Assembly (NCBI RefSeq): GCF_963921235.1
Contig: NC_086107.1
Coordinates: forward strand, 104,968,001 to 105,032,000
Origin: Mobula hypostoma
Lineage: Eukaryota
Direction of reading: 5' to 3'
DNA length: 64,000 nt
Shown: piece after piece, positions 12,625-53,590 of the stretch
How positions within the stretch are numbered: position 1 is the stretch's first letter
Layout of the letters: every line of letters starts with the position of its first letter
Notes under the pieces: model-generated
Told to the model about the DNA's origin: nothing
Database searches by the model: none
Seen by the model: the letters and a program-made list of their open reading frames with translations, nothing else
Program-made: the position numbers and the translations under genes

Positions 12625-14205
12625 ACCTTGACAGGCAGTCAGCAATCACATTTTCCGTGCCTTTTACATGTGTTATTAATAATCCCTTAGACCAGGCTCC
12701 AACTCAGCAAACTTCATAGTGGCCAAAAACACTGATGAATTGCGATCAGTGTAACCTCTCATTTGGTTTTGTCCCGGACCACAATAACAAGGGTTGTCCC
12801 ATTCCGACTTAGTTTTCTCTCGCAAGGGCTTAGTAGGAGGGGGAGGGGTAGTGACCGCAGAGTTATTGCAAAACTTCCTACAGTACCCCACCATCTCCAA
12901 GAGCCTTCTGAGGGCCCTCTTGTCTGTCGGGGTTGGGAGGTCAGCAATAGCCTGCACTGTAGCTTGCATCGCTGCCAGCTGCCCCTGTGTCACCACAATT
13001 CCCAGGTAAGTGACCTTCGTGTAGCTGAACTCATTTTTTTCACAGTTCACTATCAAGCTGGCTTCAGACAGCCGTATTAAATTGCCAATACGCACCTCTG
13101 TGTTCGTCAGCCCTTTAGTCACTGAATTACTCATTCTATATGGATGTTGTTTACTAGGCTAGGCTATTGTAACAGACACCACCCAACGTCCCAGTTCTTT
13201 GCATCGCCTCGGGACAATCAAACGCACGGGTGCGAGTCGTTTAATTACTTCTCCTAAAGAGTCGCTTTGTTTGGGGATTAAGGGAGAGACCTTATCAGTA
13301 GACCTGGCCAAAACAATAGCCTTCTCCCATCTGATCGATCCCATACTAATCTTTTCAAAATGGTTTTTTTCTCTTATCAGGGGGCCCCTAGCTTCATTGA
13401 TTTCCACGCTAACACCGACTAGGTTTGTTAGCATATCAAAAGCCTGTGACCGTCTCAGTTTGCGTCGGTCATGATCAATAACATCCTTCCCCCTGGGCAG
13501 CCGGTAAACCTCTTTCATGATTCCACTAACTGTTTCCTCCAGCACCGCAAAATGTCCACCGGGGGGTACCTCGTGGGCCATGTTAAAAACCTCATCCCCA
13601 TAACTCTTTTGCACCACCCCCCATTCCTCATCTGTGGGCACAGTACTTGGTCTCCCTTTCTTCCTTAGCACTTCCTCCTCCACACAATAGCCTACTAGTT
13701 CCCTTGTCAAGTCTGTGTCAGAGAGAGCTGTCTCTGCCAAAACCATCAGCCCCTCGTCTCGCTCCTGCGTCTGCACAAATTCTTTCCTGGCTACTGCTAT
13801 GTCTGTCCCAGCTCCCTCACTACCTCTTGTCTCACTACACTCCTTTTCATTTTCTACCCCCGTCTCGTACAAGACTGGCAGAAACGTTTCAGCTAAATTT
13901 ACCACTGCAGCTAAATTCACTACCGCAGCCCCATGATGAACCTGTGAGTCCATGGGCGGGGCCTCAATGCTGGCAGGCTGACCTGTCAATCTCACGACTG
14001 GGAACACGCTTCCCTCGGCGATGTCATTACCGAGCAAGACTTCCACGCCTTTCATCGGTAATTCGGACCTCACCCCGATCATGACTAGTCCAGAGACCAG
14101 GTTGCTTTGTAAGTCTACCTGGTGCAGAAGGACTGTCTCTGTCCCTTCTCCAATACCTTTGACCTTGACCTCCCCAGTCTGGGTCTCTGAGCTAAACTCA
14201 TACAC
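12625..14205 (-). pseudogene. pol: pol remnants in order protease, integrase zinc-binding, RT C-terminus, RNase H end
   Basis: LLGNDIA; AHEVPPGGHFAV (integrase HH); KVTYLGIVV..PTPTDKRALRRLLEMVGYCRKF; THVKGTENVIADCLSR just before the PPT. Confidence 0.8.
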
Positions 14206-15576
14206 TCTTCAGTATTAGTGACTGACATGCTCCCGTGTCTCTCCAGATCCGCACTGGAACTGGTTTTAACCCCTCCTTCACTGACACCAATCCAGCCGAG
14301 ATAAACCTCTCGCGCCCTTCCTGAACTTTGGCAGACCTGTCCTTCCCCAGTGGTTCGCTTAATAGCTCGATACAGCCAGTCAAAATCGCTGTCTTCCCTT
14401 TTCCCGTCTCCTTCTTTGGGGCAAAGCACCTGGACGCAAAGTGTCCGACTTTCCCGCAATTATAACAGACGACCCCAGGAGACTTCCTGCCAGACTGCTC
14501 CCGGTCTACCTTATCCTTCTCACTAGTCCCCGGCTTACTTTCTGACTTTTCCGGCGGACTCTCCCCGCCGTCCTGACTACCCTTCTGGTAGCCTTTACTC
14601 GGGGCAAACTTCATTTTATGCGTCAACGCATACTCATCCGCTAACTTAACAGTTGCGGCTAACGTGGCTGCCTCTTTCTCATCGAGGTAGGGTCTCATAC
14701 CCTCAGGGACACAACCTTTAAACTGCTCAATCAGGATCAGCTGCAGCAGTCTGTCATAATCCCCCTCTACCCCCTTTGAGGCGCGCCAGCGCTCACAATA
14801 TGTCTGCATCTCACGGGCAAACTCCAAATACATGCGGTCCCACTGCTTCCTCGCATTCCGGAACCTCTGCCGGTATGCCTCCGGGACTCATAAATCCTGA
14901 GGATGGCCTCTTTCACCACCTCATACCTCTGGGCATCTTCTGCAGACAAAGTGGAGTAAGCTTCTTGGGCTTTCCCTTTCAGTACACTCTGAAGTAAAAC
15001 AGCCCACTTATCCTTCGGCCAGTCCTGACTTATAGCCACTTTTTCGAAATGGAGGAAGTACTGATCCACGTCGGTATCGTCAAATTGGGGAACCAGCCTA
15101 ACCTCCTGGGTCGCCCAGAACCCTCCACCTTGGTTCTGCAGGAGCCCCTGCTCGGCCCTTATCTTTAACTTCTCCAACTCGAATTCCATTTCCCTCTGTT
15201 TCTCCTCTCGCTGCAACTGTCTCTCTCTCTCTTCTCTCTCCAACTGTCTCTCTCTCTCTTGCCTTTCTAACTCTCTCTCCTTCTCTTCTTGCTCCAACTG
15301 TCGTATCCGGAACTCGTGCTCGAGTTTCAGTTTTTCAAGCTGTACCTGTACCGCGTCTCCAGCAGATTTTTCAATAGACACCACCTCCAGCTCGCCTTGA
15401 GGAAACACACCTTTAGATACATAGTGCTCTACGATAGCTCTGTGTATCTCCTCTCTCCTCATTGTCGGCTTCCCCTTAGCAAGATTCAACCGTTTGGCCA
15501 CAGCTACCAATTCCGATTTCCTGGCATCTTCTAATGCCTCCAAGGTCGGCGCCTTTATAAATTCCTCAGCCTCCAT
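14198..15576 (-). pseudogene. gag: gag (SCAN-like capsid, CCHC knuckle) and start of protease, frameshifted near 14886 and 14200
   Basis: VRLVPQFDDTDVDQYFLHFEKVA, LILIEQFKGCVPEGMRPYLDEK, CYNCGKVGHFASRC, and protease active site WRDTGA. Confidence 0.9.
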
Positions 15577-17638
15577 TTCTGCTGTTCGTCTTTTCTTTCT
15601 TTCGGGAATTTTGACCCAATCAATTTACTCCGTCCCAAATTTAGTGTTCAAAATCGCGGACGAGAACCCCACTTATGTTATTTACCCCGTAACTGGGTTG
15701 CCAAACCAGCAGAAATGGATCACTCAGTTGGAGTCTGGATTACTAGATCTAAGAAAGTTTTATTAAAGAAACAAGCAACACAGTAATCGAAAGGATAATA
15801 AATGCAACAGTTCAGCAATGATAAACACACGTGCACAGAATTAAGGTAACAGGATCAATCAAGCTCTATCGTTGTCTAGGGGTAAATGACCAATTTCAAA
15901 GTGACACAAAATCCAGTTCAATTTAGTTCATTTGCAGTAATTGTTGCCATGGCGATGGACAATGTGGGGGGAAGGAGAGAGAACAAGAACGATCATTCGA
16001 AACGGCTTCCACTCACAGACTGGCGATATGGCTCACAAGCAGCTTTTGGGCGGGTCCTTGGTGATGTCACCTGAGATCACTGACTGTGACCCCTCCTCCA
16101 GATGCGGTCGATCCTCTGCAGTGAACCTGGCACCCCAGGCAAGGGTGGACACACACCGGGTTCCCGCTGATCGTACCTTTCCACCCTGTGCGTTTATGGC
16201 CCGGTACTTCCCACCGACTCGTGAGAGGCGCACCGCTTCCAGGGTCTCGTTACCTCGGGTGTTGTGTGTGTCCTGCCTTAGCGAACCTGTCCCTTTTTAT
16301 ACCCCTGCTGGGGTATCGCCTGTCCATCACTTCAAACAGTTCAGGGTTCAAAGGGGGAGCCGCTCTAGACAGCTCTCTCTCCCGTCCCTTCATTACACAT
16401 CTCCAGATCGCCTGTCCAGCACTTCAAACAGTTCAGGGTTCAAAGGGGGAGCCGATCTTGACAATACCCAGACTGATGGCTCCTTCATTAACACCTCCAA
16501 ATGCTGCTTCATTGTTCCTTATCTCTCCCTCCCCTGAGGACAGGTGGCAGACCAACTGCTGATGCCACTGGTGCTAGCCCAGGCCAGCAAACACCTTAAT
16601 TTATGTGTATTTTCATCACAGTAGATGCACCTTTGGCAGCAATTACAGCCTTGAGTCTGTGTGGATAGGTCTCTGTCAGCTTTGCACATCTGGACACTGC
16701 ATTTCTTCCCCATTCGTTACAGAACTGCTCAAGCTCTGTCAAATTGCACGGGGATCGGGAGTGAACAGGCCTTTTCAAGTCCAGCTACAAATTCTCAATT
16801 GGATTGAGGTCTGGGCTCTGATTTGGCCACTCCAAGGCATTAACTTTGTTGTTTTTAAGCCATTCCTGTGTAGCTTTGGCTTTATGCTTGGGGTCATTGT
16901 GTTGCTGGAAAACAAATCTTCTCTTGCTGACGGCATCAGGTTTTCCTCCAGGATTTCTCTGTATTTTGCTGCATTCATTTTACCCTCTACCTTCACAGGC
17001 CTTCCAGGGCCTGCTGCAATGAAGCATCCCTACAGCATGATACAGCCACCACCATGCTTCACGGTAGGGATGGTGTAATTGATGATGCGCGGTGTTTGGC
17101 TTATGCCAAACATAGCGTTTAGTCTGACGGCCAGAAAGCTGAATTTTGGCTTCACCAGACCAGAGAACCTTCTTCCAGCTGACTTCAAAGTCTGCCACAT
17201 CCCTTCTAGCAAACTCTAGCCGAGATTTCATGTGGGTTTTTTTCAACATTGGTTTTCTCTTTGCCACTCTCCCATAAAGCTGTGACTGGTGAAGTACCCG
17301 GGCAACAGTTGTTGTATGCCTAGTCTCTCCCATCTCAGCCACTGAAGCTTGTAACTCCTCCAGAGTTGTCATAGGTCTCTTGGTGGCCTCCCTCACTAGT
17401 CCTCCTCTTGCACAGTCACTCAGTTTTTGAGGACTGCCTGCTCTAGGCAGATTTACAGCTGTGCCGTATGCTTTCCATTTCTACTCCAACGGATATTCAG
17501 TGACTTGGAGATTTTCTTTAATCCATCTCCTGACTTTTCAATAACCTTTTCATGGAGTTGCTTGGAGTGTTCTTTTGTCTTCATGGTGTAATTTTTGTCA
17601 GGATACTGACTCACCAGCAGTCGGACCTTCCAGATACA

Positions 17639-18264
17639 GATTAGAGTAGATTATGAGGACACACAGTCCTCTTTTAATGTCATTTAGTAATGCACGTATA
17701 AATAAATGATACAATATTCCTCCGGTGTGATATCACAAAACACAGGATGGACCAAGACTGAAAAAGTAACAAAACCACATAATTATAACATATAGTTACA
17801 ACAGTGCAACAATACCATAACTTGATGAAGAACAGGCCATGGCACAGTAAAAAAGTTCAAAGTCTCTTGAAAGTCCCACATCTCACGCAGATGGGAGAAG
17901 GAAGAAAACTCTCCCTGCCATGCCCGACCACAGTCCGACTCTGAGGCGTTCAAAAACTTCGAGCTCTGATCAGCCCTCCGACACTGAGTACTGAGCACCA
18001 TCTCTGTCCGAACGATTTGACCTCAGCCTCGGTCGCCAGCAGCTGGCAAAGCTGGGGATTTTGAGGCCTTCCCTCCGGAGATTCTCGATCGCACAGTAAC
18101 AACAGCAGCGAACCTGCGTTTCAGAAATTTCTCCAGATGTTCGTCTGCTTCTCACGTCTGTCTTCATCAAATCAGAATTGTCCACGGCCCCTATTTAACA
18201 GACACTATCATTTTTCACCGGAGAGCTGCGCGAGCGTGTCACGCTGCCATCTTCTCCTCCCGCC
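17639..18264 (-). mobile_element. About 650-bp non-coding SINE-like/non-autonomous LINE-derived element
   Basis: Starts GGCGGGAGGAGAAGATGGC; ends with a GAGGAC..GTCCTC stem-loop and ATCTA tail. Other copies on + at 57384-58068 and about 60985-61590. Confidence 0.8.
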
Positions 18265-18827
18265 TTGTATTTTTACTACAATCAATTGAAACACCTTGAC
18301 TGCAGGCAGGTTTATATATAGCTAGTTAATACCTTAACTAATTATGTGACTTCTGAAAGCAATTGGCTGCACTAGTGATGATTTGGTGCGTCATATTAAA
18401 GGGGGGTGGGTGGTGAATACTTTTGCAATCAATTATTTTGTGTTTTACAATAGTTTAGATCACTTTGTAGAGATCGGTTTTCACTTTGACACGAAAGAGT
18501 CTTTTTCTGTTGAGCAGTGTCAAAGAAGCTGAACTAAGTTCACTGTGATTCAATGTTGTAAAACAATAAAACATGAAAACTTCCAGGGAGGTTGAATACT
18601 TTTTATAGGCGCTGTAATCTGTGCCAATGGAGAACTGTGACTGGCACTTGTGTGGTGGGTCTGGGAGCTTTTCGGTGGTAGACATCCGCCCCCGGCTGCC
18701 AAAGAAATGGTATTTCATGGGTCTTGGCCAGGAATGGCGACTGTTTATTCCCCTCCACAGATGCAGCCTGATCTGCTGAGTTCCTCGTGTGCGTGAGTGA
18801 CTTCTACCCTGTTGTTTGCCCCTGCAG

Positions 18828-19029
18828 GCAGTTTGGTGGCTACGCCAAAGAGGCCCAGTTCGTTGAGTACGCGACAAAGCTGCGTACCGCGCTGGGCGAT
18901 GCCGTGCCCTACCATCACGACCTCTTCTACTGCGTCGGCTATGACCCGCCCATGAAGCCTGTCGGCAGGAGGAATGAAGTGTGGTTTTTGAAGAAGGACG
19001 ACGGGGCATCGGGTGTGCAGTCGAATTGA
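18828..19029 (+). CDS. HEBP1: HEBP1 coding exon 4 (terminal)
   Basis: Acceptor tttgcccctgcag|; encodes (T)[66 protein letters not shown] with the SOUL GYDPP..RRNEVW motif. Joined CDS is 600 nt (199 aa plus stop). Confidence 0.96.
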
Positions 19030-19459: not shown

Positions 19460-20029
19460 CTATTATCATAATCATGGATGTGTTGTGGCTTCAGTTTGTA
19501 TCGATTATGTTATCTTTGCGGTGTGTGAGGAGGTACATCTACCCCCTCTCCGGAACACAATGGAAACGGAGCAGGAAGAGGCGAAGGGGGTAAAGTTAAA
19601 GTCAAGTTTATTGTCACGTGCACAACTGTGTGTACGCACGGGTGCAATGGAAAACTTACCTGAGGCGGCGTCACGGGCTTGTCGCACCTCATCAGCACGA
19701 TTCACAAAACAAAAAACAAATTAAACAAGATGCTTCCAACACTACCTCTGTAAAGGTTTGCTAGGAGTGATTGATGCCAAGCCAGACCTCCTGGATCTCC
19801 TGAGAGAGTGATTGCGACCGTGTACACAGACCAACCAGACTCTTTCCCCTTCTAAAGAGTGTGATTATGCCCAACACCACATCGGGTGAGCAGAGCCAGT
19901 TAGACCGAGGGATACTCCCTCTTTACTCAATCACACCTGCACACTCCCTCACTCACCCACTTGTCAATGTTCCAGTCCGAACTATAACACACTGCTGTCC
20001 CTGGAGAGATTTCCTCAGGCTGTGGTGAG

Positions 20030-20310
20030 CTTTCTTTTTCTTTCTCTTCCCCTCCCCTTTCTCTCTCTACCTCTCTTCCCCTCCCGTTTTCTCTGATTCC
20101 CCTAATTCTTTCCCCCTCCCTCTGCCTTTCTCTCTCTCCCTCTCTCCCCTAAATCTCTCCTCTTCCCTCCCCCTCTCCTTCCCTCTCTCCCCCCTCTCTC
20201 TCCTCCCCTCTCTCTCCTTTTCTCTCGCCCACCCTCCACCCCCTTGCCCTCTCACCTTCCATGCTGCTCTCCCCCTCCTCTTCTCTCCTCGTCTCGTCTC
20301 TCCCCCCGGC
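20030..20310. repeat. CT-rich low-complexity tract
   Basis: Nearly pure pyrimidine tract; a similar tract lies at about 34600-35080. Confidence 0.85.
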
Positions 20311-20547
20311 CGTGAACCTTCATCACGTGCATCAGGCCACGATGATGACGTGCTTCGGCCAGTTAGAGTTCCAGTGCAAGTCTGGCTCGATGCCCACGGA
20401 ACCAAAGCTCTTTCTAAAGCTCGGTCCCCGGGGTTTTCCTGTCTTCATCTGCCAGTGACCCCGCTCACACTCCTGGGTTTAACTGTTCTCCTCCAAGACT
20501 GCAGAGAGCTTTGGAAGGACCTACAGACGGGCTGGTGGAAGAGTGGT

Positions 20548-21768
20548 TACCAGCCCCGACTAGGAGTTGAGGATGCCATTGTCTACCTGCTGAACCGTGT
20601 CTACACCCACCTGGACAAGCCAGCGAGCACTGTGAGGGTCATGTTTTTTGACTTCTCCAGTGCATTCAACACCATCCGCCCTGCTCTGCTGGGGGAGAAG
20701 CTGACAGCGATGCAGGTGGATGCTTTCCTGGTATCATGGATTATTGATTACCTGACTGGCAGACCACAGTATGTGTGCTTGCAACACTGTGTATCCGACA
20801 GAGTGATCAGCAGCATTGGGGCTCCACAGGGGACTGTCTTGTCTCCCTTCACTTCACTATTTACAACTCGGACTTCAACTACTGCACAGAGTCTTGTCCT
20901 CTTCAAAAGTTTTCTGATGACTCTGCCATAGTTGGATGCATCAGCAAGGGAGATGAGGCTGAGAACAGGGCTACGGTAGGAAACTTTGTCACATGGTGTG
21001 AGCAGAATTATCTGCAGCTTAATGTGAAAAAGACTAAGGAGCTGGTGATAGATCTGAGGAGAGCTAAGGTACCGTGACCCCTGTTTCCGTCCAGGGGGTC
21101 AGTATGGACATGGTGGAGGATTACAAATACCTGGGGATACGAATTGACAATAAACTGGACTGGTCAAAGAACACTGAGGCTGTCTACAAGAAGGGTCAGA
21201 GCCGTCTCTATTTCCTGAGGAGACTGAGGTCCTTTAACATCTGCTGGACAATACTGAGGATGTTCTATGAGTCTGTGGTGGCCAGTGCTATCATGTTTGC
21301 TGTTGTGTGCTGGGGCAGCAGGCTGAGGGTAGCAGACACCAGCAGAATCAACAAACTCATTCGTAAGGCCAGTGATGTTGTGGGGATGGAACTGGACTCT
21401 CTGACGGTGGTGTCTGAAAAGAGGATGCTGTCCAAGTTGCATGCCATCTTGGGCAATGTCTCCCATCCATTACATAATGTACTGGTTGGGCACAGGAGTA
21501 CATTCAGTCAGAGATTCATTCCATCGAGATGCAACACAGAGCGTCATAGGAAGTCATTCCTGCCTGTGGCCATCAAACTTTACAACTCCTCCCTTGGAGG
21601 GTCAGACACCCTGAGCCAATAGGCTGGTCCTGGACTGTTTTCCTGACATTATTTACATATTACTATTTAGCTATTTATGGTTTTATTACTATTTATTATT
21701 TGTGGTGCAACTGTAACGAAAACCAATTTCCCCCAGGATCAATAAAATATGACTATGACTATGACTAT
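20548..21768 (+). mobile_element. Rex1/Babar-like LINE, 5'-truncated, frameshifted RT
   Basis: VRVMFFDFSSAFNTI, GAPQGTVLSP, QKFSDDSAIVG; (GACTAT)n tail after AATAAA. Confidence 0.92.
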
Positions 21769-30483: not shown

Positions 30484-30781
30484 TCACTGACCCTTGACCC
30501 TCGAACTCCTCCTGTTGCTGCCAACGGGTTGCCTCCCTCCCGCCGGTCTCCTGCGGGCAACGGGCCGGGCCGAGGTCTGCGCTGAGGTGCGGTGGGAATT
30601 CTGGTGCTTCCCTGGCGCCACCTTCATCAACACGTGCTTGACCTTCACCGGTTTCCCGTATCCCACCTGGGCGACAGCCCTCTCCAAGCCCGACAGGGTC
30701 TCGGTCAGGACGCCAAGTCGCCTCTTCAGCAAGCGAGCTTCTCGGAACAGGTCTTCGAGAGCTTCGGAGAATGGCTGAATT
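30484..30781 (-). CDS. Uncharacterised secreted protein, coding exon 3 (terminal)
   Basis: Acceptor cctcctttcag|; encodes (R)IQPFSEALEDLFREARLLKRRLGVLTETLSGLERAVAQVGYGKPVKVKH...RRSSRVKGQ*. The three exons join in frame to 537 nt (178 aa plus stop). Confidence 0.82.
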
Positions 30782-31777
30782 CTGAAAGGAGGTGGCAGGA
30801 GACAGGATTAGTGAATGGGAAATGGGAAGTACGGTGCCCGGCCCAGTGGTTAGTTAACACTGTTACTGCACCAGCGATCTGGGTTCAGTTCTAACCACTG
30901 CCTGTAAGGAGTTTGTACATTCTTGGCGTGACCGCACCGGTTTCCTCTGGGTGATCCAGTTTCCGCCTACCTTCCAAAGGCGTACGAGTTAGTAAGGGTT
31001 ACTACATCGTGGGCATGGAAACACTTGCGGGCTGCCTCCAGCGCATCCTTGGACTGTGTTAACCGTTCATGCAACTGGCCCATTTCACTGTATGCTCACA
31101 GGTGCATGTAACAAATTACAATTGATCTTATCTCTTGAGATTGGAAGCAATGACCAGATAGAGCGAGGAGGCTGGTTTATTATCCCAGAACAGTTTCCCA
31201 GATACATGTTATCCTCAGAATAAAGGGGTCCCCCTTTAAAACTCAATGTCTTCAACCGGAGGTTGGTGAAATTGTTCCCACAGAGGGTTGAGTGGCCCAA
31301 GTCATTGGGTGTATTTAAGGCAGAGGTTGAAAGGCTCTGGAGTAGTCAGGGGGTAAGGGTTATGGGGAGAAGGTGGGAGAATGGGCTTTCCGTGGAATTT
31401 GTTGACACAGGCAGCTGTGGAGGCCAAGTCATTGGGTATATTTAAAGCAGAAGTTGATGGATTCTTGATTAGTAAGGACATCAAAGTTTAATTATTTATT
31501 GAGATACAGCCCAGTGTAGGCTCTTCTGGCCCTTCAAGTTGCACTGCCCAGAAACCCCCAATATAACCCTGGCCTAATCATGGGGCAATCTACAATGACC
31601 AATTAACCTACCGACCAGTAGGTCTTTGGACTGTGGGAGGAAACCAGAGCACCCGGAGGAAACCCATGCGGTCGCAGGGAGAAGAAACAAACTCCTCACA
31701 GACAGTGGTGGGAATTGAACCCGGGTCACTGGTACTGTGCAGTGTATTTCTAACCACAGTTATACTACTGTGCCGCC

Positions 31778-32813
31778 ATTATTGATTACCTGATTGGCAG
31801 ACCACAGAACGTGTGCTTGCAACACTGTGTGTCTGACAGAATGATCAGCAGCACTGGGGCTCCACAGGGGACTGTCTTGTCTCCCTTTCTCTTCACCATT
31901 TACACCTCGGACTTCAACTACTGCACAGATTCTTGTCCTCTTCAAAAGTTTTCTGATGACTCTGCCATAGTTGGATGCATCAGCAAGGGAGATGAGGCTG
32001 AGTACAGGGCTACGGTAGGAAACTTTGTCACATGGTATGAGCAGAATTATCTGCAGTTTAATGTGAAAAAGACTAAGGAGCTGGTGGTAGACGTGAGGAG
32101 AGCTAAGGCACCGGTGACCCCTGTTTCCATCCAGGGGGTCAGTATGGACATGGTGGAGGATTACAAATACCTGGGGATACGAACTGACAATAAACTGGAC
32201 TGGTCAAAGAACACTGAGGCTGTCTACAAGAAGGGTCAGAGCCGTCTCTATTTCCTGAGGAGACTGAGGTCCTTTAACATCTGCCGGACGATGCTGAGGA
32301 TGTTCTACGAGTCTGTGGTGGCCAGTGCTATCATGTTTGCTGTTGTGTGCTGGGGCAGCAGGCTGAGGGTAGCAGACACCAACAGAATCAACAAACTCAT
32401 TTGTAAGGCCAGTGATGTTGTGGGGATGGAACTGGACTCTCTGACGGTGGTGTCTGAAAAGAGGATGCTGTCCAAGTTGCATGCCATCTTGGACAATGTC
32501 TCCCATCCACTACATAATGTACTGAGTGGGCACAGGAGTACATTCAGCCAGAGACTCATTCCACCGAGATGCAACACAGAGCGTCATAGGAAGTCATTCC
32601 TGCCTGTGGCCATCAAACTTTACAACTCCTCCCTTGGAGGGTCAGACACCCTGAGCCAATAGGCTGGTCCTGGACTTATTTCCTGGCATAATTTACATAT
32701 TACTATTTAAATATTTATGGTTTTATGTGGCTATATTTATACTCTATTCTTGGTTGGGGCAACTGTAATGAAAATCAATTTCCCTCAGGATCAATAAAGT
32801 GTGACTATGACTA
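31778..32813 (+). mobile_element. Rex1/Babar-like LINE, 5'-truncated, open RT C-terminal ORF (31811-32662)
   Basis: Nearly identical to 20740-21768; FSDDS motif; GACTATGACTA tail. Confidence 0.93.
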
Positions 32814-32949
32814 GAATGGGGTTAAGATGGGTGATAAATCAGCCATGATGGAATGGCGGAGCAGACTCGATGGGCTGGATGTCCTTATTCAACTCATTTC
32901 TTATGGTGATGAGGGATTCTGCCCCTAGCACCCTCTCAGACAGAGTTTA

Positions 32950-33527
32950 ACCCCCAGAGAAATCAGGATCTCCCAGTGGCCACACATTTTAATTCCACAT
33001 CCCATTCCCATTCTGATATGTCTATCCACGGCCTCCTCTACTGTAAAGATGAAGCCACACTCAGGTTGGAGGAACAATACCTTATATTCCGTCTGGGTAG
33101 CCCCCAACCTGGTGGCATGAACAGGTTCTGCTAATGACCCACCTCCCCCTCGTACCCCATCCCTTATTTATTTATATACGCATTCTTTTTCTCTCTCTGC
33201 TTTTTCTCCCTCTGTCCCTCTCACTATACCCCTTGACCCCTTGCCCATCCTCTGGGCTTCCCCACTTTTCCTTCTCCCCGGGCCTCCTGTCCCATGATCC
33301 TCTCATATCCCTTTTGCCAATCACCTGTCCAGCTCTTGGCTCCATCCCTCCCCCTCCTGTCTTCTCCTATCATTTTGGATCTCCCCCTCCCCCTCCCACT
33401 TTCAGATCTCTTACTAGCTCTTCCTTCAGTTAGTCCTGACGAAGGGTCTCGGCCCGAAACGTCGACTGTACCTCTTCCTAGAGATGCTGCCTGGTCTGCT
33501 GCGTTCACCAGCAACTTTGATGTGTGC
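32950..33527 (+). mobile_element. Penelope-like element 3' end (GIY-YIG C-terminus plus terminal repeat)
   Basis: LPVATHFNSTSHSHSDMSIHGLLYCKDEATLRLEEQYLIFRLGSPQPGGMN, then a CT-rich linker and the repeat carrying the hammerhead motif. Confidence 0.85.
33431..33468 (+). ncRNA. Minimal type-I hammerhead ribozyme motif (best copy)
   Basis: agtc-CTGACGA-A-GGG(tctcgg)CCC-GAAA-C-GTC-gact: stem I AGUC/GACU, palindromic ACGU helix III, GUC cleavage triplet. Confidence 0.72.
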
Positions 33528-33906
33528 CCCTTCTCTAATCTTCAAGATGCTCTACATCTACACCACAGGGTGTCTGACCCCTTCACAAGAGAAACAGACC
33601 CTCACAGTAATTCCCAGGCCCCTTAATTCAATCTCCATTCAGTCTCCTATGTTCCAAAGAAAATAACCTCAGCCTGTCCAATCTTTCTTCGTAGCTCATA
33701 TTTTCCAGTTCTGGCTACATCCTTGTAAGTCTCCTGGGCTCTGGGAGATCTGCCCTTGAACCTGTGCCAGTTTATATCTGCTCCAAGCATGCAGTCCACA
33801 TCTGTAGAAGTGGAGGCGGGGGGGATTGGCTTCAAGTGAAAGGTACACTGATTGGTAGTTGCTGTTTGTTAAGATAGTTTCAGTGATGTGAACTGCGCGT
33901 TAATAT

Positions 33907-34080
33907 TAAAAAACGCAAACAACAGGAATTCTGCAGTTGCTGGAAATTCAAGCAACACACATCAAAGTTGTTGGTGAACGCAGCAGGCCTGACGAAGGGT
34001 CTCGGCCTGAAACGTCGACTGTACCTCTTCCTAGAGATGCTGCCTGGCCTGCTGCGTTCACCAGCAACTTTGATGTGTGT
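33907..34080. mobile_element. Fold-back Penelope-derived mini-element with hammerhead core (33989-34016)
   Basis: Inverted arms; flanked by TGCGCGTTAATAT (33894-33906) and TGCGTGTTAATAT (34081-34093). Confidence 0.8.
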
Positions 34081-35086
34081 TGCGTGTTAATATGTTGACG
34101 TGCCGAAAGCACAAAGAAAAGAGCACAAGTTTTAGTTGGTTAAAACTTTTTTGCTCATCCCCGACAGTTACTGAGTAGATGCAAATGTCAGAAACGCCTA
34201 CAAATGTTTGGTGTCCACAGGTGGTAAGGCGCAAGGTGAGGATGGTGTCAGTGGCAGGCCGAGTGGGGTTCGTGGATAGGCACCTCATTTGCTGTTGAAG
34301 ATGCTGTGCGAGTATTTTGGCCATCCATGTCTTGAGATTTATTTGTTTATATCACAACAGTCACAGGCTGGGCCATGTTCTATAGTTGAGATCAGAAGGT
34401 GCAGGGCTATAGAAGGCTTCCTTTGCAGCACAAATCATCCCGACTCCCAAATCTGTCACTGTGTCCTGGGTCTCCCCACTCAACCAGATCAACGGGAGTT
34501 AGGTTCACCCCATCTCCTCAAGGCAGTCCAACGGGGAATAGGTACTGGCCTTGTCATTAATGCCCACATCCCCCAACAAGTGAATAAAACACCGACTCCC
34601 TCTTTTCTTCTCACTCTCATCTCTCTCCCTCTGAATTGATTTCCCCTTTTGCTCTCTCCTTTTCTTAGCTCACAACTTTCTGTACCTATCCATCTCTCCA
34701 ACCTCTCTCCCCACTCTCTCCCATGTTTGCTCCGTCCATTTCCCCCTTGCACTCTCTTTCATCCTAACTCCTAAAGTTCCGTATCAATCTCCAACATTTC
34801 TTCCCTCTCGCGTCCCTGCTCTGTCTACCTGTCTCCCCTCTCTCTCCTCACTGTCTAATTTGCCTTTGTCTCCACACCATTACTTTCCCAATTTCTCTTG
34901 TGCCTGACTCTCTCCCCTCTCCTCCTCTCTCAATTTTTCTCTGACTTTCCCTCTATCCCCACTCTTTCCTCCGCCTTTATTTTACACTCTCCCCTCTCTC
35001 CCTTTAACCGCAATCTTGTCAGCTCCCCCAACCCCTCTCCCCACCCCCCCATCTCCCTGTCGCTCTCCCACTCTCCTCCTCCCTAC

Positions 35087-35216
35087 CTGGCGTAGTCCGG
35101 CAGCACCTCCTGTGGTTTGCTCAGCACCGTCTCCTTCACTTGCTTGAAGATGTGATTTCCCCAATGGTTCAGCAGGCGGGTTATGCTGTGGACCCCGTTA
35201 ATGTTCACCATGTCGG
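35087..35216 (-). CDS. Uncharacterised secreted protein, coding exon 2
   Basis: Acceptor gttacacccag|; encodes (A)DMVNINGVHSITRLLNHWGNHIFKQVKETVLSKPQEVLPDYA; donor AG|GTAGGG, phase 2. GC-rich third codon positions. Confidence 0.82.
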
Positions 35217-35594
35217 CTGGGTGTAACAGCACGTTATACAGTAAATGTAATGAGCTACAGCTTGGCAAAATTTCATCTGCACATTCTCCATGCCACATTA
35301 CACAACCCAAAATTCACCACACCCCATTACACCAACTCCCAAAACCCCATTAAACAACCAGTAATCTCCACATATATGACCATTTTGATCACTTTGTATT
35401 AAAATAGTCTGTTTTTTTTGTTTTTAATTTTAAAAGCGTGTATAATTTACTGTATGTTCCATTTGTATTTTATTTGTGGATGTTGCTTATCTGATGCTAT
35501 TTGCCTGTGACGTTACTTTGAGTTCATTGCACCTCTGCGGACATGTATTTGAGCAAATGGTATTATACTCAACTTTGATTTTGGCTTTAAGATT

Positions 35595-35915
35595 GACATC
35601 TCATTACACAACCCTACGTCCCCCCACCTCGTTACTCAACCCAACCTTCTCCACAGCTCATTACACAACCCTGCGTCCCCACACCTTGTTACACAGCCCA
35701 ACATTCTCCACACCTCATTACACAACCAGTCCCCACACCTCATTACACAACCAGTCTCCACATCTCATCACACAACCACCTTCCACATTTCATTACATAA
35801 CCAGTCTCCACATCTCATTACACTACCCAACATTCTCTATATCTCATGACACAACGTAACATTCTCCACACCACAGTACACTTCTCAACATATTCCACAT
35901 GTCACTATACATTCC
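35595..35915. repeat. Degenerate minisatellite (CTCATTACACAACC-based units)
   Basis: About ten imperfect copies, within an intron of the minus-strand gene. Confidence 0.75.
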
Positions 35916-36126
35916 AATGATCTTAGCTCCTCACTGTATAATCCAACATTTTGCAGATTAATTGATGCCAACAAACATTGCCCACATTCTATTATACAAC
36001 CAGTTCATGCACTTAGATGTCCTCCATACCCCATTATACATCCTGATGGTATCTGCACTTAGGGAGAGAGGGAGAGAGGGAGAGAGATAGATATGGGACC
36101 ACAGACTCACTGTCCAGACCTCCTAC

Positions 36127-36235
36127 CTCCTTCTCGGTAGTTCCATTTCCGGTGCTCGCTAGCCTGCTGCCCCTGGCTCTGAGCCAATGCAAAGAGCAGA
36201 ACGAGGAATACAAGCTGCATCGTCATCCTGGACAT
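36127..36235 (-). CDS. Uncharacterised secreted protein, coding exon 1 (signal peptide)
   Basis: Minus-strand acceptor ttctgcacttccag| (exon starts 36243) and ATG at 36235. Encodes MSRMTMQLVFLVLLFALAQSQGQQASEHRKWNYREG; donor GAG|GTAGGA, phase 1. Confidence 0.8.
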
Positions 36236-36984
36236 AGATCACCCTGGAAGTGCAGAAACAAGTGGGTGTTACGCCTGGTTCCACCGGTGAGAAGGAATAT
36301 TGTGACTTGACTTCAGTCTCATGGGGGAGGGGTTGAGTACACACCTTGGTGACATAATGAAGCCCAGCCATTCGGCCCATTGGGATCATGCTGGCCCTCA
36401 GAGGACCAATCCCATCAATCTTCAGAACGATTGTGAGTGTGCTCCGCTGTCTGTGGGGAAGGGGCCGGTGTGTCCCAATAAGAGTGAACTGGGGATCTGA
36501 GGGGGGCGGGGGTAAGTTTCAGGGGAAAGCCAATCCATGGGAAGAGTTCAGGATCAGTCCCACGGGACGGGAGTACGGGAAGTGGTGAGGGCCTGGCCCC
36601 TGGAGCAGGGATAACCTGCACCTTGGGAACAGTGTTCACTCTGGGAGGGGTAAAGAGACTTTCCTCGGGGAAAGCATCTGCCCTAGGAGTAGGGTGGACA
36701 GTGACAAAACCAGGCCAGTCTCGGGAGCACTATCAGCCACAGAGTGAACGATGAACGACTCCCCCGGGGTGACCATACCACCCTCAGATGCCAACTCTGA
36801 CAGGCCCCTTCACCCCAGCGAGTTCTGTTGCCCTCCCTAGGGGTGGGTTTGTGGCAGGAAAAGATACACCGCCAACCTGCGTGGAACACAAGACATTCGT
36901 ACGACAGAAAGCCTGCTGGAACACGGGGGGTTTCTGCGACTTCCCCCTTCACCTTCTCCTACAACATAGAACAGAGAACAGTAC

Positions 36985-39847
36985 TGTCACAATGGGGGCA
37001 CGGGTAGCGGACCCAAATGCAAGACACAGACACTGAAGTACAAGGAACAGGACTTGACTAGAGTAGGGACATGTCAGGATACAGGCAAGGAGCAGGGACA
37101 AGAACACAGACTTGGGCAAGGGAAAGCGGGACCAGGACTAGAAACCATGGACTAGGAAACAAGGCTTCGACTCCGAGCCTGAGGCTGGACAAGGACCCAG
37201 AACCTAGGTCTTTCCTAGGGCTTGGACCCCAGAACCAGGCAAGGGCATGACATAGCTTCAGGACAGGACGTGGCTGGGGTCCTGGCTCTTGAACTTGGAG
37301 ACAGGCTGGGGTCTTGGCTCTTGAACTTGGAGACAGGCTGGGGTCTTGGCTCTTGAGGCTTGCAGGCTGATAACTTGGAGGCTGGAGCTCAGAGACAGAC
37401 TGGGAACTGTACATCAACATAGAGCCGGGACCTATCCTTAGACAAGCCAGGACTCAATTTTATCTCCACACCACAGTGAGACAGGTCCCCCCACAGGGCA
37501 ATAGCAGAACAGCCTGACTTACCCCACAGAGGCGAGGACAAGAAGAGACAAACACCAAAGGACAACAGACAGTTCCATCACTGCATCGGGGTTGCTGCAA
37601 GTCACAGTTTCAGCCAGCATCCTCAGCTGACTACAGAAACAGCCGGATCCCTACCTAGCCCAGAGTGGCTGGCAGCCACTCAGCTGGCCCGGGAAACAGC
37701 CGAATCCATACTGCAAAGACAGCTCCAGCTACCGACAGCAAGGCTCCATGAAGCAGTGGCTCCCCAACACAGCAAGTGACCACTCTAGCCTTCCACCAGC
37801 AGATTGCTCCCAGAGAATCTTGATAAGACAAACCAGCAGCCCACACTGTCTGTCTGTATCTTGTTTTACGGCGGTTGGCATCCAGCTTAATGGTGCATTA
37901 CCGCCACCCTCTGCTCCAGAATGTGCACTAGACATACATTCTAAATCCCTTCACCCAATCACACACACACATATATATATACAAACGTACACTTCACCCT
38001 CCCATCTTTGACCATCCTAGTATCCTATTCCTGTTTATTCGTCATATTCTATAAAAAACCCCTGTACCCCTTAAAAACGCTAAAAATACCCGGACTTGTG
38101 CTCTCTCATCCATGCCCAGCAACCCTTTTAATGTGAATTTCTGCATCCCCAACTCCCTTAATTTATTTCTCATCATCTCTCTCTGTATCCCATACTTCCT
38201 GCAACTCAGAACTACATGTTCTACTGACTCCTCTTCCTGACATTCCTCACACAATCCTGTCTGGTGTTTCCCTATCATTTTCAATGTTTTGTGTAATGCA
38301 CAATGCCCCAGCCTTAACCTAGTCCACACAATTTCCTCTCTTCTGTTTCCATTACCTACCCTAGTAACTGCAACACTCTTTTGTATTTGATATAAATGCC
38401 TCCCTTTCCCCTCCCTGTCCCATCTTTCTTGCCACATTCGGTTGACTTTTTCCCAGATTACACACTTAACCTCTGCTTTACTGATACTAATGTGCATTTC
38501 CACATTTTCTTTCTTTAACGCCCTCTTTGCCAACTCATCCACCCTCTCATTCCCCTTCACCCCTACATGTGCTGGAACCCATAGAAATTTTACCTGACCT
38601 CCCTGATTTGCAATTCTTGTAACTAACTGAAGGACTTCATAAAGTACATCTTGCCGACTGTTTGTGTGAAAAGACCTTAAACTTGCTAGAACTGAGGATG
38701 AATCTGAACATATCAATGCTTTGGCTTGTCTGGCTTTCTGCACCCATTACAACGCAACCAACACTGCCAGCATCTCCACTGTAAACACCCCTAACTTATT
38801 AGATGTTCTTCTGCTGATTCCAATTTCTTTTGCTGGTATTACCACCCCAAACCCTGTCACTCCTGTTTCAGGTTCCTTCGCACCATCCGTATAAATGTGA
38901 GTATAATCACTATAATTTTCCATCACATGACAGTTAAATGCATTTACCAAATCTGTTTTATATCTTTCTTTCCTTTTTACCTCTAATAAATGCCAGTCTA
39001 TGTCAGGCCATACAAGCTTCCATGGAGCTACAACCGGATAAACTAAGATAAGACCGGATAAGACTTATCCTCAGATCAAACACTCCACATTCTTTCGCAA
39101 TATCATTCCCTACCCGACTAAAGGTATCCCTCTGAAACCTCCCATTTTCCCAGCACTCCTGCAACACTCCTTTAGTAGGGTGAGAATCATTGTGCCCCTG
39201 CAAGTTAGCCCAGTAGTTTGCCATCAGTTGCATCCTTCTTAGTTCCAAAGGCATTATTCCCATTTCTACCTGTAGTGCTGATACTGGTGACGTTTTAAAA
39301 GCCCCACTGCACACTCTCAAGGCCTGAGCCTGAATCACATCCAGTTTCCTTATAAGAGACCTAGCTGCTGATCCATATACTATATTTCCATAATCCAATA
39401 CAGATCTTACTAAAGCCACATACATTCTCTTCAAAGCTGAACAACTTGCTCCCCGTTCCCTACCAGTCAAACATCTCATCACATTTATTACTTTTTTACA
39501 TTTCTCCTCAACTTTCCTGATATGGTCTGCCCATGTTAATCGTGAAGCAAATATAACTCCCAGAAATTTAAATGATGCAACCCTTTCTAATTCAACCCCA
39601 TACATCCTTAACTTCTTCCCTACCTCAACCCTTTTCCTGGTAAAAAAAAATACAGTTTGAGTTTTATCTACTGAAAATAGCAGCCCACACTCAACCCCAA
39701 GGCTACTTATATTCCAAACCCCAAGATGGGAATCAGGTGCCTATGATTAACTCAATCAAAACAAGGGACAGCTGGAAGACCCGGAGTCCTGAGTCCACGG
39801 ACTGGACCGTGAACCGGAATGCGTACTTCACAGACCGGACCATGACA
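36985..39847. mobile_element. Solo LTR (about 1.0 kb) interrupted by a LINE
   Basis: TGTCA...TGACA termini with 5-bp TSD AGTAC (36980-36984, 39848-39852); internal 32-bp tandem repeats at about 37272-37355. Confidence 0.8.
37848..39678 (-). mobile_element. I-group (Nimb-like) LINE with RNase H, 5'-truncated
   Basis: RT thumb (FKFLGVIF..LTWADHI), RNase H (IYTDGAK, SDSSSVL, WVPAHVGVKGNERVDELAK), CCHC (CEEC..ESVEHVVLSC); (CAGA)n tail; 13-bp TSD AGCAGCCCACACT. Confidence 0.92.
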
Positions 39848-42800
39848 AGTACAGTCCCTTCAGCCCACAGTGTTGTGCCAAACTTTTAAACTACACCAAG
39901 ATTAACCTCACCCTTCTCTCCCAAATAGCCCTTCATTTTTCCTTCATCCATGTGCCTATCTAAGAGTCACTTAAATGCCCCTAATGTGTCTGTGTCTACC
40001 ACCCCCCATGGCAGAGCGCTCCACACATCTACCACTTGGTGTAAAAAAATACCTCTGGATTCCCTCCGATACTTTCCCTCCAATCATCTTAAAATTATTT
40101 CCTCTTATATTAGCCATTTCCGCCTTACAGAAAAGTCTCTGGCTGTCCACTCTATCTAAGCCTCTTAATCATTTTACGCACTTCTATCAAGTCTCCTCTC
40201 ATCCTCCTTCACTCCAAAGAGAAAAGCCCCAGCTCGCTCTATAAACCTTCCACATCCTCCCTGTAATGAGGCGACCAGAACTGAACACAATCCTCCAAGT
40301 GTGGTCTAAGCAGAACTGCAACATTTCCTCACGGCCTTTGAACTCAGGCCCCTACCTAACGTGGACCAGCACACCACAGGCCTTCTCAACCATCCTATCA
40401 ACTCGTGCAGCAACTTTGAGGGATCACTGGGCGTGGACCCGAAGAAACTGCCGTTCCTCCACACTGCGAAGGATCCTGCTGACGACCTCGGTAGCAAAGC
40501 ACGTTCATCGGTGTTAGCCGTTGCTTCCCCTCAGCCACGTCGAGAGGTGGCGTCCACTGTTGGCATTGGAAGTTATTCTTCGGGTAGACATCCGAAGGCA
40601 GTGAAATGAATGGATTGCAGAAACACAGCACTCCTCGGCCCACTGACTCCATGCTGACCATCTGCCACCCATTCACACTGACCCAACCCTAGCCCATCTT
40701 ATTCTCCCCAAGTTCCCATCACCTTGCCCCAGATGCCACCACCCACCTACACAAGGGGATAGCTACACTGTCCAACTAACCTGCCAACCCGCGTGTTTTT
40801 GGGAAGTGGAAGGAAGTCAGAGCACTTGGGATGAACCCACATGGTCACAAGATGACCAAAATACACAGCAGCACAATCAGGCCATTCAGCCCATCAAGTC
40901 TGCTCTGCCATTCCATTGTAGCTTTTTTATTATCCATCTTGATCCCATTCTCCTGCCTTCTCTCCATAACCTTTGACGCCCTTCATAATCAAGAACCTAT
41001 CAGCTTCCGCTTTAAATATACTCAGTGACTTGGCCCCCACAGCCATCTGTAGCAATGCATTCCACAGATTCACTACCCTCTGGCTAAAGAAATTCCTCCT
41101 CATCTCTGTTCTGAAAGGACATCTTTCTATATTCTGAGACTGTGCCCTCTGGTCCTGGACTATCCCACTATAGGAAACTTCCTCTCCACATCCACTCTAC
41201 CTACGCCTTTCATAATTCAATGGGAACGCCCCGTAAGCTTCTAAACTCCAGGGAGTGCAGGCCAGAGCTATCACATGCTCCTCATGCATTCTCATGAGCC
41301 TGCAAACTCCAAATAGACAGCAGCCAAGGTCAAGATTGAATATGGTTCTCGGGAGGTGTGAGGTAGCTGCAAGAAGCGATAATGAGAGGAGAGAACCAGC
41401 CTGCGTCTCCGCTGTTAACCGTGAAGACAAAGCAACCACATCAGCAATATATTGACACTGTTGCCCATACATGGAGAGGCTGTGGGTGTTGGGGCTTGTT
41501 GGGAGGTTCCACACTGGGAAACCAAGTCTTTCAGGGGGAGCGGAACAGTTTCCACACTGAGTGTGTGCGAGATTGAGGGTGAATGGTCAGGTGTGAGCGA
41601 TGGTAAATGTGAGAAGGTGTGTCAGATGTTTATAACTGAGATTGTGTCACACTGGATGAATGGCGCCACCGAGGTGCCGAGGCTGACTGGTGTCAGCAAG
41701 GCAGAGTGTGAATGGTGTCAGTCGGACACGGGGTGTGCGTGGTGTTGTAGAGACACTGAGTCTGGCGTCAGTCAGTCATTGAGCCAGAGTGGTGTCAGTC
41801 AGACACACGGGTGTGGAAGGCGTCAGTGAGAAATGCTTGTCGCAGAGACAGTTGTGAATGAGTGTGAGAGAGTGTGTTACACTGTCCGTGAGCGCGAGGT
41901 TGCTACCGAACTGCGCATCTTGGGATTTTCCACAGCACCGGTTAAAAGAAACAATCGAGCAAAAGTATTTTTTTAGAATAACAACTGCATCCGCAGATCT
42001 TACGTACTCTAAATCCAGGCAACAATTATTCAAAACTCTCATCTAAAGTCGCACTGTAACATTTCTCGATAAACCCTAACCCAAATACAAGCTCCGCGCC
42101 GCCGCCCAATTAAATTTTTTTGGCCAGGTCGATTTTACCTTCAGCCCTTTGCCTCTCCGATCTGTTGAATTCTAAGAAGGTGCCTTGAGCACGGACGGGT
42201 TCCAGGTTGTGTGCAGTCTCCCTCCTCTTCCTCGCTTCTGGACGCTGGTTCGATGTACCCCTTTGGTTTGTTCTGTTGCCAATGACGTGTCGGCAGCGGC
42301 TTCACTTTGAACTCCAGATGGTGGAAACGTGTGAGCTGAAAGATGCCGACTCCGGTGGGTGAGCCGTAACCTTTTGCAGTCTATCTGTCTGATGATGATG
42401 GCCTATTTGTGTTCGTTATATCCACAATCCAAAAGTACAGAGAAAATTTACGAGGATGTTGCTGGGACTGCAGGACCAGATTATAAGGGAAAAAAAATTC
42501 AATCGGTTAGGACTTTATTCCTTGGTACGGAGAAGATTGAGATTTGATGGTGTTATACACCGTTATGAGGGGTATAGGTAGAGTAAATGCAAGCAGGATT
42601 TTTCCACTGAGGTTGGGTGGGACAACAACCAGAGGTCATGGGTTAAGAGTCAAAGGTGAAAATTTGAAGAGACACACGAGGGGAGAATGCTTCTCTCAGG
42701 GGGTGGAGAAAGCGTGGAACGGGCTGGCGGCGCATGTGGTGCATGTGAGCCCGCTTCGAATGTTTAAAGGAAGTTTGGGTAGTAGGGTTTTTTATTGGGG

Positions 42801-51154: not shown

Positions 51155-53590
51155 CATAGAAAATAGGTGCAGGAGTAGGCCATTCAGCCCTTCGAGCCTG
51201 CACCGCCATTTATTATGATCATGGCTGATCACCCAACTCAGAACCCCGCCCCAGCCTTCCCTCCACACCCCCTGATCCCTTTTGCCACAAGGGCCATATC
51301 TAACTCCCTCTTAAATATAGCCAATGAACTGGCCTCAACTGTTTCCTGTGGCAGAGAATTCCACAGATTCACCACTCTCTGTGTGAAGAAATTTTTCCTC
51401 ATCTTGGTCCTAAAAGGCTTCCCCTTTATCCTCAAACCGTGGCCCCTCGTTCTGGACTTCCCCAACATCGGGAACAATCTTCCTGCATCTAGCCTGTCCA
51501 ATCCCTTTAGGATCTTATACGTTTCAATCAGATCCCCCCTCAATCTTCTAAATTCCAACGAGTACAAGCCCAGTTCATCCAGTCTTTCTTCATATGAAAG
51601 TCCTGCCATCCCAGGAAATCAATCTGGTGAACCTTCTTTGTACTCCCTCTAAGGCAAGGATGTCTTTCCTCAGATTAGGGGACCAAAACTGCACACAATA
51701 CTCCAGGTGTGGTCTCACCAAGGTCTTGTACAACTGCAGTAGTACCTCCCTGCTCCTGTACTCCAATCCTCTTGCTATAAATGCCAGCATACCATTCGCC
51801 TTTTTCACCGCCTGCTGTACCTGCATGCCCACTTTCAATGACTGGCATATAATGACACCCAGGACTCGTTGCACCTCCCCTTTTCCTAATCGGCCACCAT
51901 TCAGATAATAATCTGTTTTCCTATTTTTGCCACCAAAGTGGATAACTTCACATTTATCCACATTAAATTGCATCTGCCATGAATTTGCCCACTCACCCAA
52001 CCTATCCAAGTCACCCTGCATCCTCTTAGCATCCTCCTCACCGCTAACACTGCCACCCAGCTTCGTGTCATCCGCAAACTTGGAGATGCCGCATTTAATT
52101 CCCTCATCCAAGTCATTAATATATATTGTAAACAACTGGGGTCCCAGCACTGAGCCTTGCGGTACCCCACTAGTCACCACCTGCCATTCTGAAAAGGTCC
52201 CGTTTATTCCCACTCTTTGCTTCCTGTCTGCTAACCAATTCTCCACCCACACCAATATCTTACCCCCAATACCGTGTGCTTTAAGTTTGCACACTAATCT
52301 CCTGTGTGGGACCTTGTCAAAAGCCTTTTGAAAATCCAAATATACCACATCCACTGGTTCTCCCCTATCCACTCTACTAGTTACATCCTCAAAAAATTCT
52401 ATGAGATTCGTCAGACATGATTTTCCTTTCACAAATCCATGCTGACTTTGTCCGATCATTTCACCGCTTTCCAAATGTGCTGTTATCACATCCTTGATAA
52501 CTGACTCCAGCAGTTTCCCCACCACCGACGTTAGGCTAACCGGTCTATAATTCCCCGGTTTCTCTCTTCCTCCTTTTTTAAAAAGTGGAGTTACATTAGC
52601 CACCCTCCAATCCTCAGGAACTAGTCCAGAATCTAACGAGTTTTGAAAAATTATCACTAATGCATCCACTATTTCTTGGGCTACTTCCTTAAGCACTCTA
52701 GGATGCAGACCATCTGGCCCTGGGGATTTATCTGCCTTCAATCCCTTCAATTTACCTAACACCACTTCCCTACTAACATGTATTTCGCTCAGTTCCTCCA
52801 TCTCACTGGACCCTCTGTCCCCTACTATTTCTGGAAGATTATTTATGTCCTCCTTAGTGAAGACAGAACCAAAGTAGTTATTCAATTGGTCTGCCATGTC
52901 CTTGCTCCCCATAATCAATTCACCTGTTTCTGTCTGCAGGGGACCTACATTTGTCTTTACCAGTCTTTTCCTTTTTATATATCTATGAAAGCTTTTACAG
53001 TCCGTTTTTATGTTCCCTGCCAGTTTTCTCTCATAATCTTTTTTCCCCTTCCTAATTAAGCCCTTTGTCCTCCTCTGCTGAACTCTGAATTTCTCCCAGT
53101 CCTCAGGTGAGCCACTTTCTCTGGCTAATTTGTATGCTTCTTCTTTGGAATTGATACTATCCCTAATTTCTCTTGTCAGCCACGGGTGCACTACCTTCCT
53201 TGATTTATTCTTTTGCCAAACTGGGATGAACAATTGTTGTAGTTCATCCATGCGATCTTTAAATGCTTGCCATTGCATATCCACCGTCAACCCTTTAAGT
53301 GTCATTTGCCAGTCTATCTTAGCTAATTCATGTCTCATACCTTCAAAGTTACCCCTCTTTAAGTTCAGAACCTTTGTTTCTGAAGTAACTATGTCACTCT
53401 CCATCTTAATGAAGAACTCCACCATATTATGGTCACTCTTACCCAAGGGGCTCTCATGACAAGATTGTTAATTAACCCTTCCTCATTGCTCAAAACCCAG
53501 TCCAGAATAGCCTGCTCTCTAGTTGGTTCCTCGACATGTTGGTTCAAAAACCAATCCCGCATACATTCCAAGAAATCCTCTTCCTCAGCA
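51155..53590 (-). mobile_element. CR1 LINE, young 5'-truncated ORF2 (end of APE endonuclease plus full RT)
   Basis: 618-aa ORF with PGNYRPVSLTS, YLDFQKAFDKVPH, GVPQGSVLGP and KFADDTK; single frameshifts near 53446 and 51610. Confidence 0.96.

Follow-up and report, generated by a model that had tools for sequence, protein, structure and literature searches.

A spliced gene of Mobula hypostoma belongs to a three-branched vertebrate family of predicted headless coiled-coil proteins

Introduction

Several families of secreted proteins form trimers through a coiled coil that carries a globular head, among them tetranectin/CLEC3, the collectins, the angiopoietin-like proteins and the matrilins. Coiled-coil assembly also occurs between different chains, as in ANGPTL8, which acts with ANGPTL3 by coiled-coil zipping. 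Here we describe a gene in a 64,000-nucleotide (nt) stretch of the Mobula hypostoma genome (NC_086107.1, positions 104,968,001 to 105,032,000), referred to throughout as the window. An initial annotation, made from the sequence alone, had proposed at this site a hidden gene for an unrecognised secreted coiled-coil protein with a cationic tail. We find that the gene is genuine and that, to judge by its relatives, it is one of three ancient paralogues rather than an oddity of sharks. Its product is predicted to form a trimer without a head. The family with its three ancient branches, its headless trimer plan and its apparent absence from mammals all appear to be undescribed.

Results

A three-exon coding sequence is conserved among cartilaginous fishes

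The initial annotation joined three minus-strand segments with GT-AG introns, in phases 1 and then 2, into a cysteine-free protein of 178 residues, and this model was reproduced exactly (Table 1). The joined segments comprise 537 nt encoding 178 residues followed by TGA, with no internal stop and no Cys. The splice donors read GTAGGA and GTAGGG, both acceptors end in CAG, and the introns of 910 and 4305 nt between the coding exons contain repeats and the remnant of a long interspersed nuclear element (LINE). The spliced three-exon gene is confirmed, and its structure is beyond chance because orthologous proteins from six named cartilaginous fishes show the same joined sequence, with 46 to 83 of 85 core residues identical. 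Frame-preserving conservation in other sharks and rays, whose absence the initial annotation would have counted against the gene, is therefore present.

An acceptor lies 8 nt 5' of the ATG and had been read as implying an upstream non-coding exon. Such an exon was located by tblastn with the model from M. birostris (XP_072129063.1), residues 1–69 of which match at 91% and residues 63–84 in another frame. In the window this exon lacks an ATG and its frame is broken, and an in-frame TGA stands 6 nt 5' of the ATG of the next exon; for these reasons it is 5' untranslated region (UTR) in this species. The M. birostris model shares these junctions and is longer by 85 residues at the N-terminus and 16 at the C-terminus; we rejected both extensions for M. 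hypostoma because in-frame stops close them in the window. The first coding exon also has a tblastn match to XP_072129063.1.

Sequence from reads and public models is consistent with this structure. One 238-nt contig of run X1, which is guessed to be RNA, aligns over precisely positions 35087–35216 and carries 70 and 38 unaligned flanking letters, which would represent a junction with the neighbouring exons; a second contig covers 30492–30709. As 3 of the 130 letters differ, X1 probably derives from a related species. Runs X2 to X4 hardly covered the exons at all, which speaks neither for nor against the gene. The 130-nt exon used alone as a query retrieved XP_072129063.1 at 95%, with the same junction residues, and five further chondrichthyan-type proteins at 70–76%. 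One of the five is a cluster of seven Logan sequences that hold a full frame of 181–185 amino acids on contigs of 920–1159 nt, most readily understood as spliced transcripts. To call the gene hidden or unrecognised was an overstatement, since databases already list it, labelled "uncharacterized", for rays, sharks, lungfish, fishes, newts, lizards and birds, with clone names for zebrafish.

The gene belongs to one of three ancient branches

A phmmer search of 1.84 billion representatives gave 80 matches at E<=0.001, and a 16-sequence profile gave 405 matches among 8000 scored candidates, with taxa read from 120 of the 405. We built a tree (IQ-TREE) from 71 rows that we chose as named or clean sequences. 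It contains three paralogue branches, A, B and C, each with cartilaginous and bony fishes, and two of them reach birds. Branch A (support 100/100; 22 of the 71 rows) includes the window gene, sharks, a chimaera, lungfish, newt, birds and the teleost gene si:ch211-243a20.3, with named Sebastes and Anoplopoma 243a20.3 sequences and chicken LOC417962 (ENSGALG00000011799); the nearest named relatives of a lizard fragment also fall within it. Branch B corresponds to si:ch211-76l23.4 and consists of ray-finned fishes and a chimaera. It is an open grade in the tree, unsupported as a clade, and no tetrapod member was seen among the named matches. Branch C (support 100/98) corresponds to si:ch73-127m5.3 and si:dkey-282h22.5 and spans chondrichthyans, coelacanth, amphibians, reptiles, birds and ray-finned fishes. 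The ESM Atlas independently gave three zebrafish names of the family.

The tree shows the window gene as the orthologue of si:ch211-243a20.3 and LOC417962. Because each branch is found in both cartilaginous and bony fishes, the duplications are, on this topology, older than the split between sharks and bony fishes, and they may be tied to a whole-genome duplication. Across window residues 37–121, identity is 83/85 in M. birostris, 69/85 in Narcine, 65/85 in Rhinoraja, 58/85 in Scyliorhinus, 46/85 in Callorhinchus, 40/85 in lungfish, 39/85 in Sebastes and 34/81 in chicken. The orthologues from zebrafish, chicken and M. birostris, all of them database predictions, thus fall within a range of 34 to 83 identical core residues. 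Intron positions are conserved too, since 12 of the 80 phmmer matches are mis-spliced fragments whose best stretch begins at query residues 35–37 and stops at 80–82, the limits of the 130-nt exon; the nearest named relatives of these fragments are teleost and bird sequences.

No tandem paralogue was found in the window by tblastn with 83 family proteins, the matches being the exons of this gene. A weak cluster of matches at 62320–62367, inside a remnant resembling reverse transcriptase (RT), was set aside as chance. In grass carp, the accessions of si:ch211-243a20.3 (XP_051744528) and si:dkey-282h22.5 (XP_051744543) are 15 apart in tables S8 and S9 of PMC11689531, which weakly suggests linkage; the accessions of the other three species in those tables show no such closeness.

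The family is widespread in jawed vertebrates and was not seen in mammals

The family matches include lizards, snakes, turtles and frogs in abundance. No mammalian member was seen among the 120 of 405 profile matches with taxa read or among 20 looked-up representatives (3 of the 20 unnamed), and no mammalian genome was searched; the representatives had been clustered at 50%, which can hide members. The alias 'Mustela putorius' on one match, P0121, was rejected as a mislabel, as the NCBI name of the protein is Oreochromis niloticus. Among the names of the listed matches there was neither a jawless vertebrate nor an invertebrate. A zebrafish clone name usually means that there is no recognised human orthologue. 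The initial annotation had raised a possible loss in mammals: the absence of mammalian names agrees with it, and we regard loss in therian mammals as likely, short of shown. The main text of a study of chicken genes lost in eutherians does not name this gene (PMC3296468), and the lists of that study, which stand in its supplements, may include it.

A signal-like N-terminus, a leucine zipper and a cationic tail are shared across the family

Features were counted in the 199 of 227 distinct sequences that have both a core anchor and a tail, after 28 fragments or anchorless sequences had been dropped; the set is redundant, and branches were assigned by a motif rule. Judged by hydropathy, 182 of 196 sequences of the family have a hydrophobic stretch on the N-terminal side of the core, and in the window protein the best 9-residue mean is 3.4. 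The hydrophobic N-terminus noted initially therefore holds across the family. The product is likely to be secreted, with cleavage predicted near residues 18–22. Several public family models, including XP_072129063.1, extend N-terminally ahead of the signal peptide, and this would mask secretion in automatic annotation.

The leucine heptad pattern also holds. Twelve a/d positions between residues 81 and 119, equivalent to 5.5 heptads, are hydrophobic in 94–100% of the 199 sequences. The tail beyond it is rich in Arg and Lys and free of acidic residues, as first described: residues 117–178 contain 15 Lys or Arg and no Asp or Glu, and the isoelectric point of this tail is about 12. Tails are net positive in 192 of 199 sequences while their sequence drifts, so that the window and lungfish proteins, which agree at 40 of 85 core residues, share only 5 of the 38 aligned in the tail.

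The paralogues si:ch211-76l23.4 and si:ch73-127m5.3/si:dkey-282h22.5 have the same plan of signal, helix, LP(D/E)Y, zipper and basic tail. They differ in carrying an N-L-T sequon, preceded directly in branch C by a single Cys, whereas the window gene has neither; an N-x-T sequon, which would also fit secretion, is present in 33/34 branch B, 117/118 branch C and 0/47 branch A sequences. The lone conserved Cys of branch C stands where the first helix begins and could form covalent links between chains or between trimers.

Modelling predicts a trimer with no globular domain

In an AlphaFold2 model of the Chiloscyllium orthologue as a monomer, helices span residues 40–61, 63–66 and 73–111 and the tail is unstructured, with a mean predicted local distance difference test (pLDDT) of 71.9. 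A homotrimer model of three copies of M. birostris residues 108–213 scored 0.67, the best of three controls scoring 0.01. The trimer runs had contact agreement of at least 70%, partner pLDDT of at least 66 and in-register a/d contacts. The mark applied to these models was reached in calibration by 21/30 solved pairs and 0/23 single chains from microbes, and by 17/29 pairs (7/16 in animals; 1/7 with no older solved relative) and 0/30 single chains from eukaryotes. RhxxhE is a described trimerization motif (PMC5940361). At positions 108–113, a relaxed form, [RK]-h-x-x-h-E, occurs in 154/199 sequences and the R-form, with Phe allowed as h, in 42/199.

The protein could not be assigned to a named family initially, and this stands: Pfam has no family for it, and no solved structure is a specific relative. 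XP_072129063.1 has no Pfam match at E<=1, and the first coding exon has only a weak signal-peptide match. Across 58 members, Pfam gave weak generic matches only (best E 6e-4 among 25 of 28 families). A profile search of the PDB gave generic coiled coils only, the best being the CLEC4M neck repeat at E 9e-4; Foldseek gave 0 matches against the PDB, and named ESM Atlas clusters no usable match to the family. VIA-align gave a best Z of 5.2 with a root-mean-square deviation of 19.8 over 74 residues, all to generic long helices, which is no demonstration of a new fold. Because a trimer of this kind lacks a globular head, its working surfaces would be two: the exon-3 helix, with W55 and LPDY, and the clustered basic tails.

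Reported expression is skeletal in fish and mucosal in chicken

Literature searches by gene names, LOC, Ensembl and UniProt identifiers and descriptive terms, with subscription papers and figures outside their scope, found no functional paper and none devoted to the family. Members do appear in expression data. As given in PMC11689531, si:ch211-243a20.3 and si:dkey-282h22.5 are 'up' in intermuscular bone relative to muscle, belong to a set of 79 cross-species candidate genes, and are also among the four such candidates altered in runx2b-null zebrafish. The log2 fold changes listed there for the runx2b comparison are +1.43 for si:ch211-243a20.3, +2.40 for si:dkey-282h22.5 and -1.65 for si:ch211-76l23.4, signs for which the reference genotype is not established. 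Chicken LOC417962 is reported as down 1.68 in the utero-vaginal junction of the oviduct after mating (PMC4625885).

Discussion

Function and alternatives

The initial annotation listed a secreted helical oligomer, a prohormone-like precursor and a matrix or antimicrobial protein. The oligomer gains support from the trimer model and the heptads, while the prohormone and antimicrobial readings have become weaker than that of a matrix oligomer. We give about an even chance to a secreted, headless, trimeric matrix protein whose three cationic tails bind polyanions. The chain would be secreted and its signal peptide removed; three chains would form a parallel coiled coil through the exon-3 helix and the exon-4 zipper, at about residues 48–119; the three disordered tails would bind sulfated proteoglycan or an acidic or mineral matrix; and the assembly would work in tendon or bone as a small headless unit that cross-links the matrix or, tethered to it, modulates it. 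Several points weigh against this. The chain number of three was our choice, and the calibration used two copies only. Leucine zippers can pass such models through their likeness to solved coiled coils, and the monomer model has a predicted template modelling score of 0.32. The window protein reads T-L-S-G-L-E at positions 108–113 and so lacks the trimer motif, which only 10/47 branch A sequences possess. Glycosaminoglycan binding is suggested by charge alone, the bone expression comes from one bulk-tissue teleost study as reported, and the reported oviduct expression of the chicken orthologue fits a mucosal role equally well.

The same heptads could instead serve a secreted headless regulator that zips with a partner chain, either its own paralogues in an A/B/C heterotrimer or another coiled-coil protein. 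Cartilaginous and bony fishes alike maintain all three branches, whose heptads stay in one register. Two of the paralogues are enriched together in intermuscular bone and move in the same direction in the runx2b comparison of PMC11689531, and branch A is without the sequon and mostly without the trimer motif, both of which B and C keep. We nevertheless think a partner-dependent regulator unlikely, given that the homotrimer model already passes, that si:ch211-76l23.4 has the opposite sign in that comparison and that branch B was not seen in tetrapods among named matches. Another candidate is a prohormone-like precursor, in which cleavage at basic sites would free a conserved peptide of the N-terminal or exon-3 region. 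Such a role would suit a small, signal-bearing protein with W-N-Y-R-[ED]-G conserved right after the signal, polybasic runs in the tail, and KR or RR at positions 98–101 in 44/47 branch A sequences. This dibasic site, however, falls in mid-zipper at e-f-g positions; paralogues keep K at e and mostly R or H at g, with KR or RR in only 1/152; and the conserved block is 85 helical residues rather than a short peptide, all of which make processing improbable. Quite improbable as well is a secreted cationic protein of host defence, with a tail directed against microbial membranes on mucosa or skin. The tail's high isoelectric point, its freedom from acidic residues and the chicken orthologue's expression in oviduct mucosa, as reported in PMC4625885, speak for it, but the tail is predicted to be unstructured and differs greatly in length between members, acidic runs occur in it in some orthologues from teleosts (P0010, P0012), the core is well conserved across jawed vertebrates, and the fish data of PMC11689531 favour skeletal tissue.

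A broader form of the matrix reading, which we hold to be doubtful, is that the paralogues are chains of an undescribed headless extracellular trimer found throughout gnathostomes, homotrimeric or A/B/C heterotrimeric, that organises tendon, fin and bone matrix and whose family was lost on the mammalian line. If a headless matrix trimer was indeed lost in mammals, it would be an overlooked part of the skeletal matrix outside mammals and might offer a handle on the ossification of tendons and on intermuscular bones in fish. A probably secreted family that has persisted from chimaeras to birds, with neither a Pfam entry nor a solved relative, is in any case a gap in vertebrate matrix or ligand biology, and if it is absent from all mammals it will have been missed by catalogues centred on human and mouse. 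Two members stand among the few cross-species intermuscular-bone candidates reported in PMC11689531, and the zebrafish and chicken orthologues make the family directly testable.

Other features of the window

The tail-to-tail neighbour of the gene is HEBP1, a synteny marker with Pfam SOUL matches at 6241–6513, 10056–10361 and 18772–19026. Its last exon matches HEBP1 at E 9e-21 and HEBP2 at 6e-5, and its middle exon matches HEBP1 only. An older RefSeq record of chicken LOC417962 is titled 'heme-binding protein 1 isoform X2'. The name of this old record, the sole basis for the comparison, is a hint that the chicken orthologue lies in the same HEBP1 neighbourhood. Remains of a Gypsy-like element with long terminal repeats (LTR) sit between similar flanks near 11900–12440 and 15940–16560, and an open RT frame of 625 amino acids occupies 51593–53467. 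The 910-nt intron contains a degenerate tandem repeat of 25–29 nt at 35284–35913.

Table 1. Positions of annotated features within the window.
Feature	Position	Strand	Description
Non-coding first exon (5' UTR)	42139–42384	minus	GT donor after 42139; 5' end undefined; located by tblastn with M. birostris model
Exon 2, first coding exon	36127–36243	minus	8 nt of UTR with TGA; likely signal peptide; W-N-Y-R motif; ends in phase 1
Coding segment 1	36235–36127	minus	109 nt; ATG at 36235
Exon 3 (coding segment 2)	35216–35087	minus	130 nt; phase 1 to 2; conserved amphipathic helix T-x-x-L-x-x-W and L-P-D-Y turn
Exon 4, coding part (coding segment 3)	30781–30484	minus	298 nt; 5.5-heptad leucine zipper (residues 81–119), cationic tail, TGA; 3' UTR continues, end undefined
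HEBP1 gene	6241–19029	plus	Three SOUL-domain exons; stop 19027–19029
Gypsy-like LTR element remains	12679–15624	minus	SCAN and zinc-knuckle gag, pol-like frames, broken; inside HEBP1 intron
LINE remnants (RT, RNase H) and Tc1-type transposase fragment	38045–39740, 51241–53742, 31754–32659, 20029–21619, 16983–17480	minus, minus, plus, plus, minus	

Comparison with known systems

That the gene is predicted in public annotations was already known, and an architecture of signal, zipper and basic tail is familiar. Like tetranectin/CLEC3, the collectins, the angiopoietin-like proteins and the matrilins, the window protein combines a likely signal peptide with a short zipper predicted to oligomerise and a basic segment that would be of the matrix-binding kind. 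Unlike them, it is only 178 residues long, contains no Cys and has no C-type lectin, fibrinogen, C1q or vWA head by Pfam. Neither ANGPTL8 nor ANGPTL3 was named among the profile, PDB, Pfam or Atlas matches listed, and no direct pairwise comparison was run. ANGPTL8 is mammalian, whereas the family of the window gene was not seen in mammals. The plan is nonetheless alike: ANGPTL8 (betatrophin) is small, secreted, helical and without a head, and it works by assembling into coiled coils; the same is predicted here for the product of the window gene.

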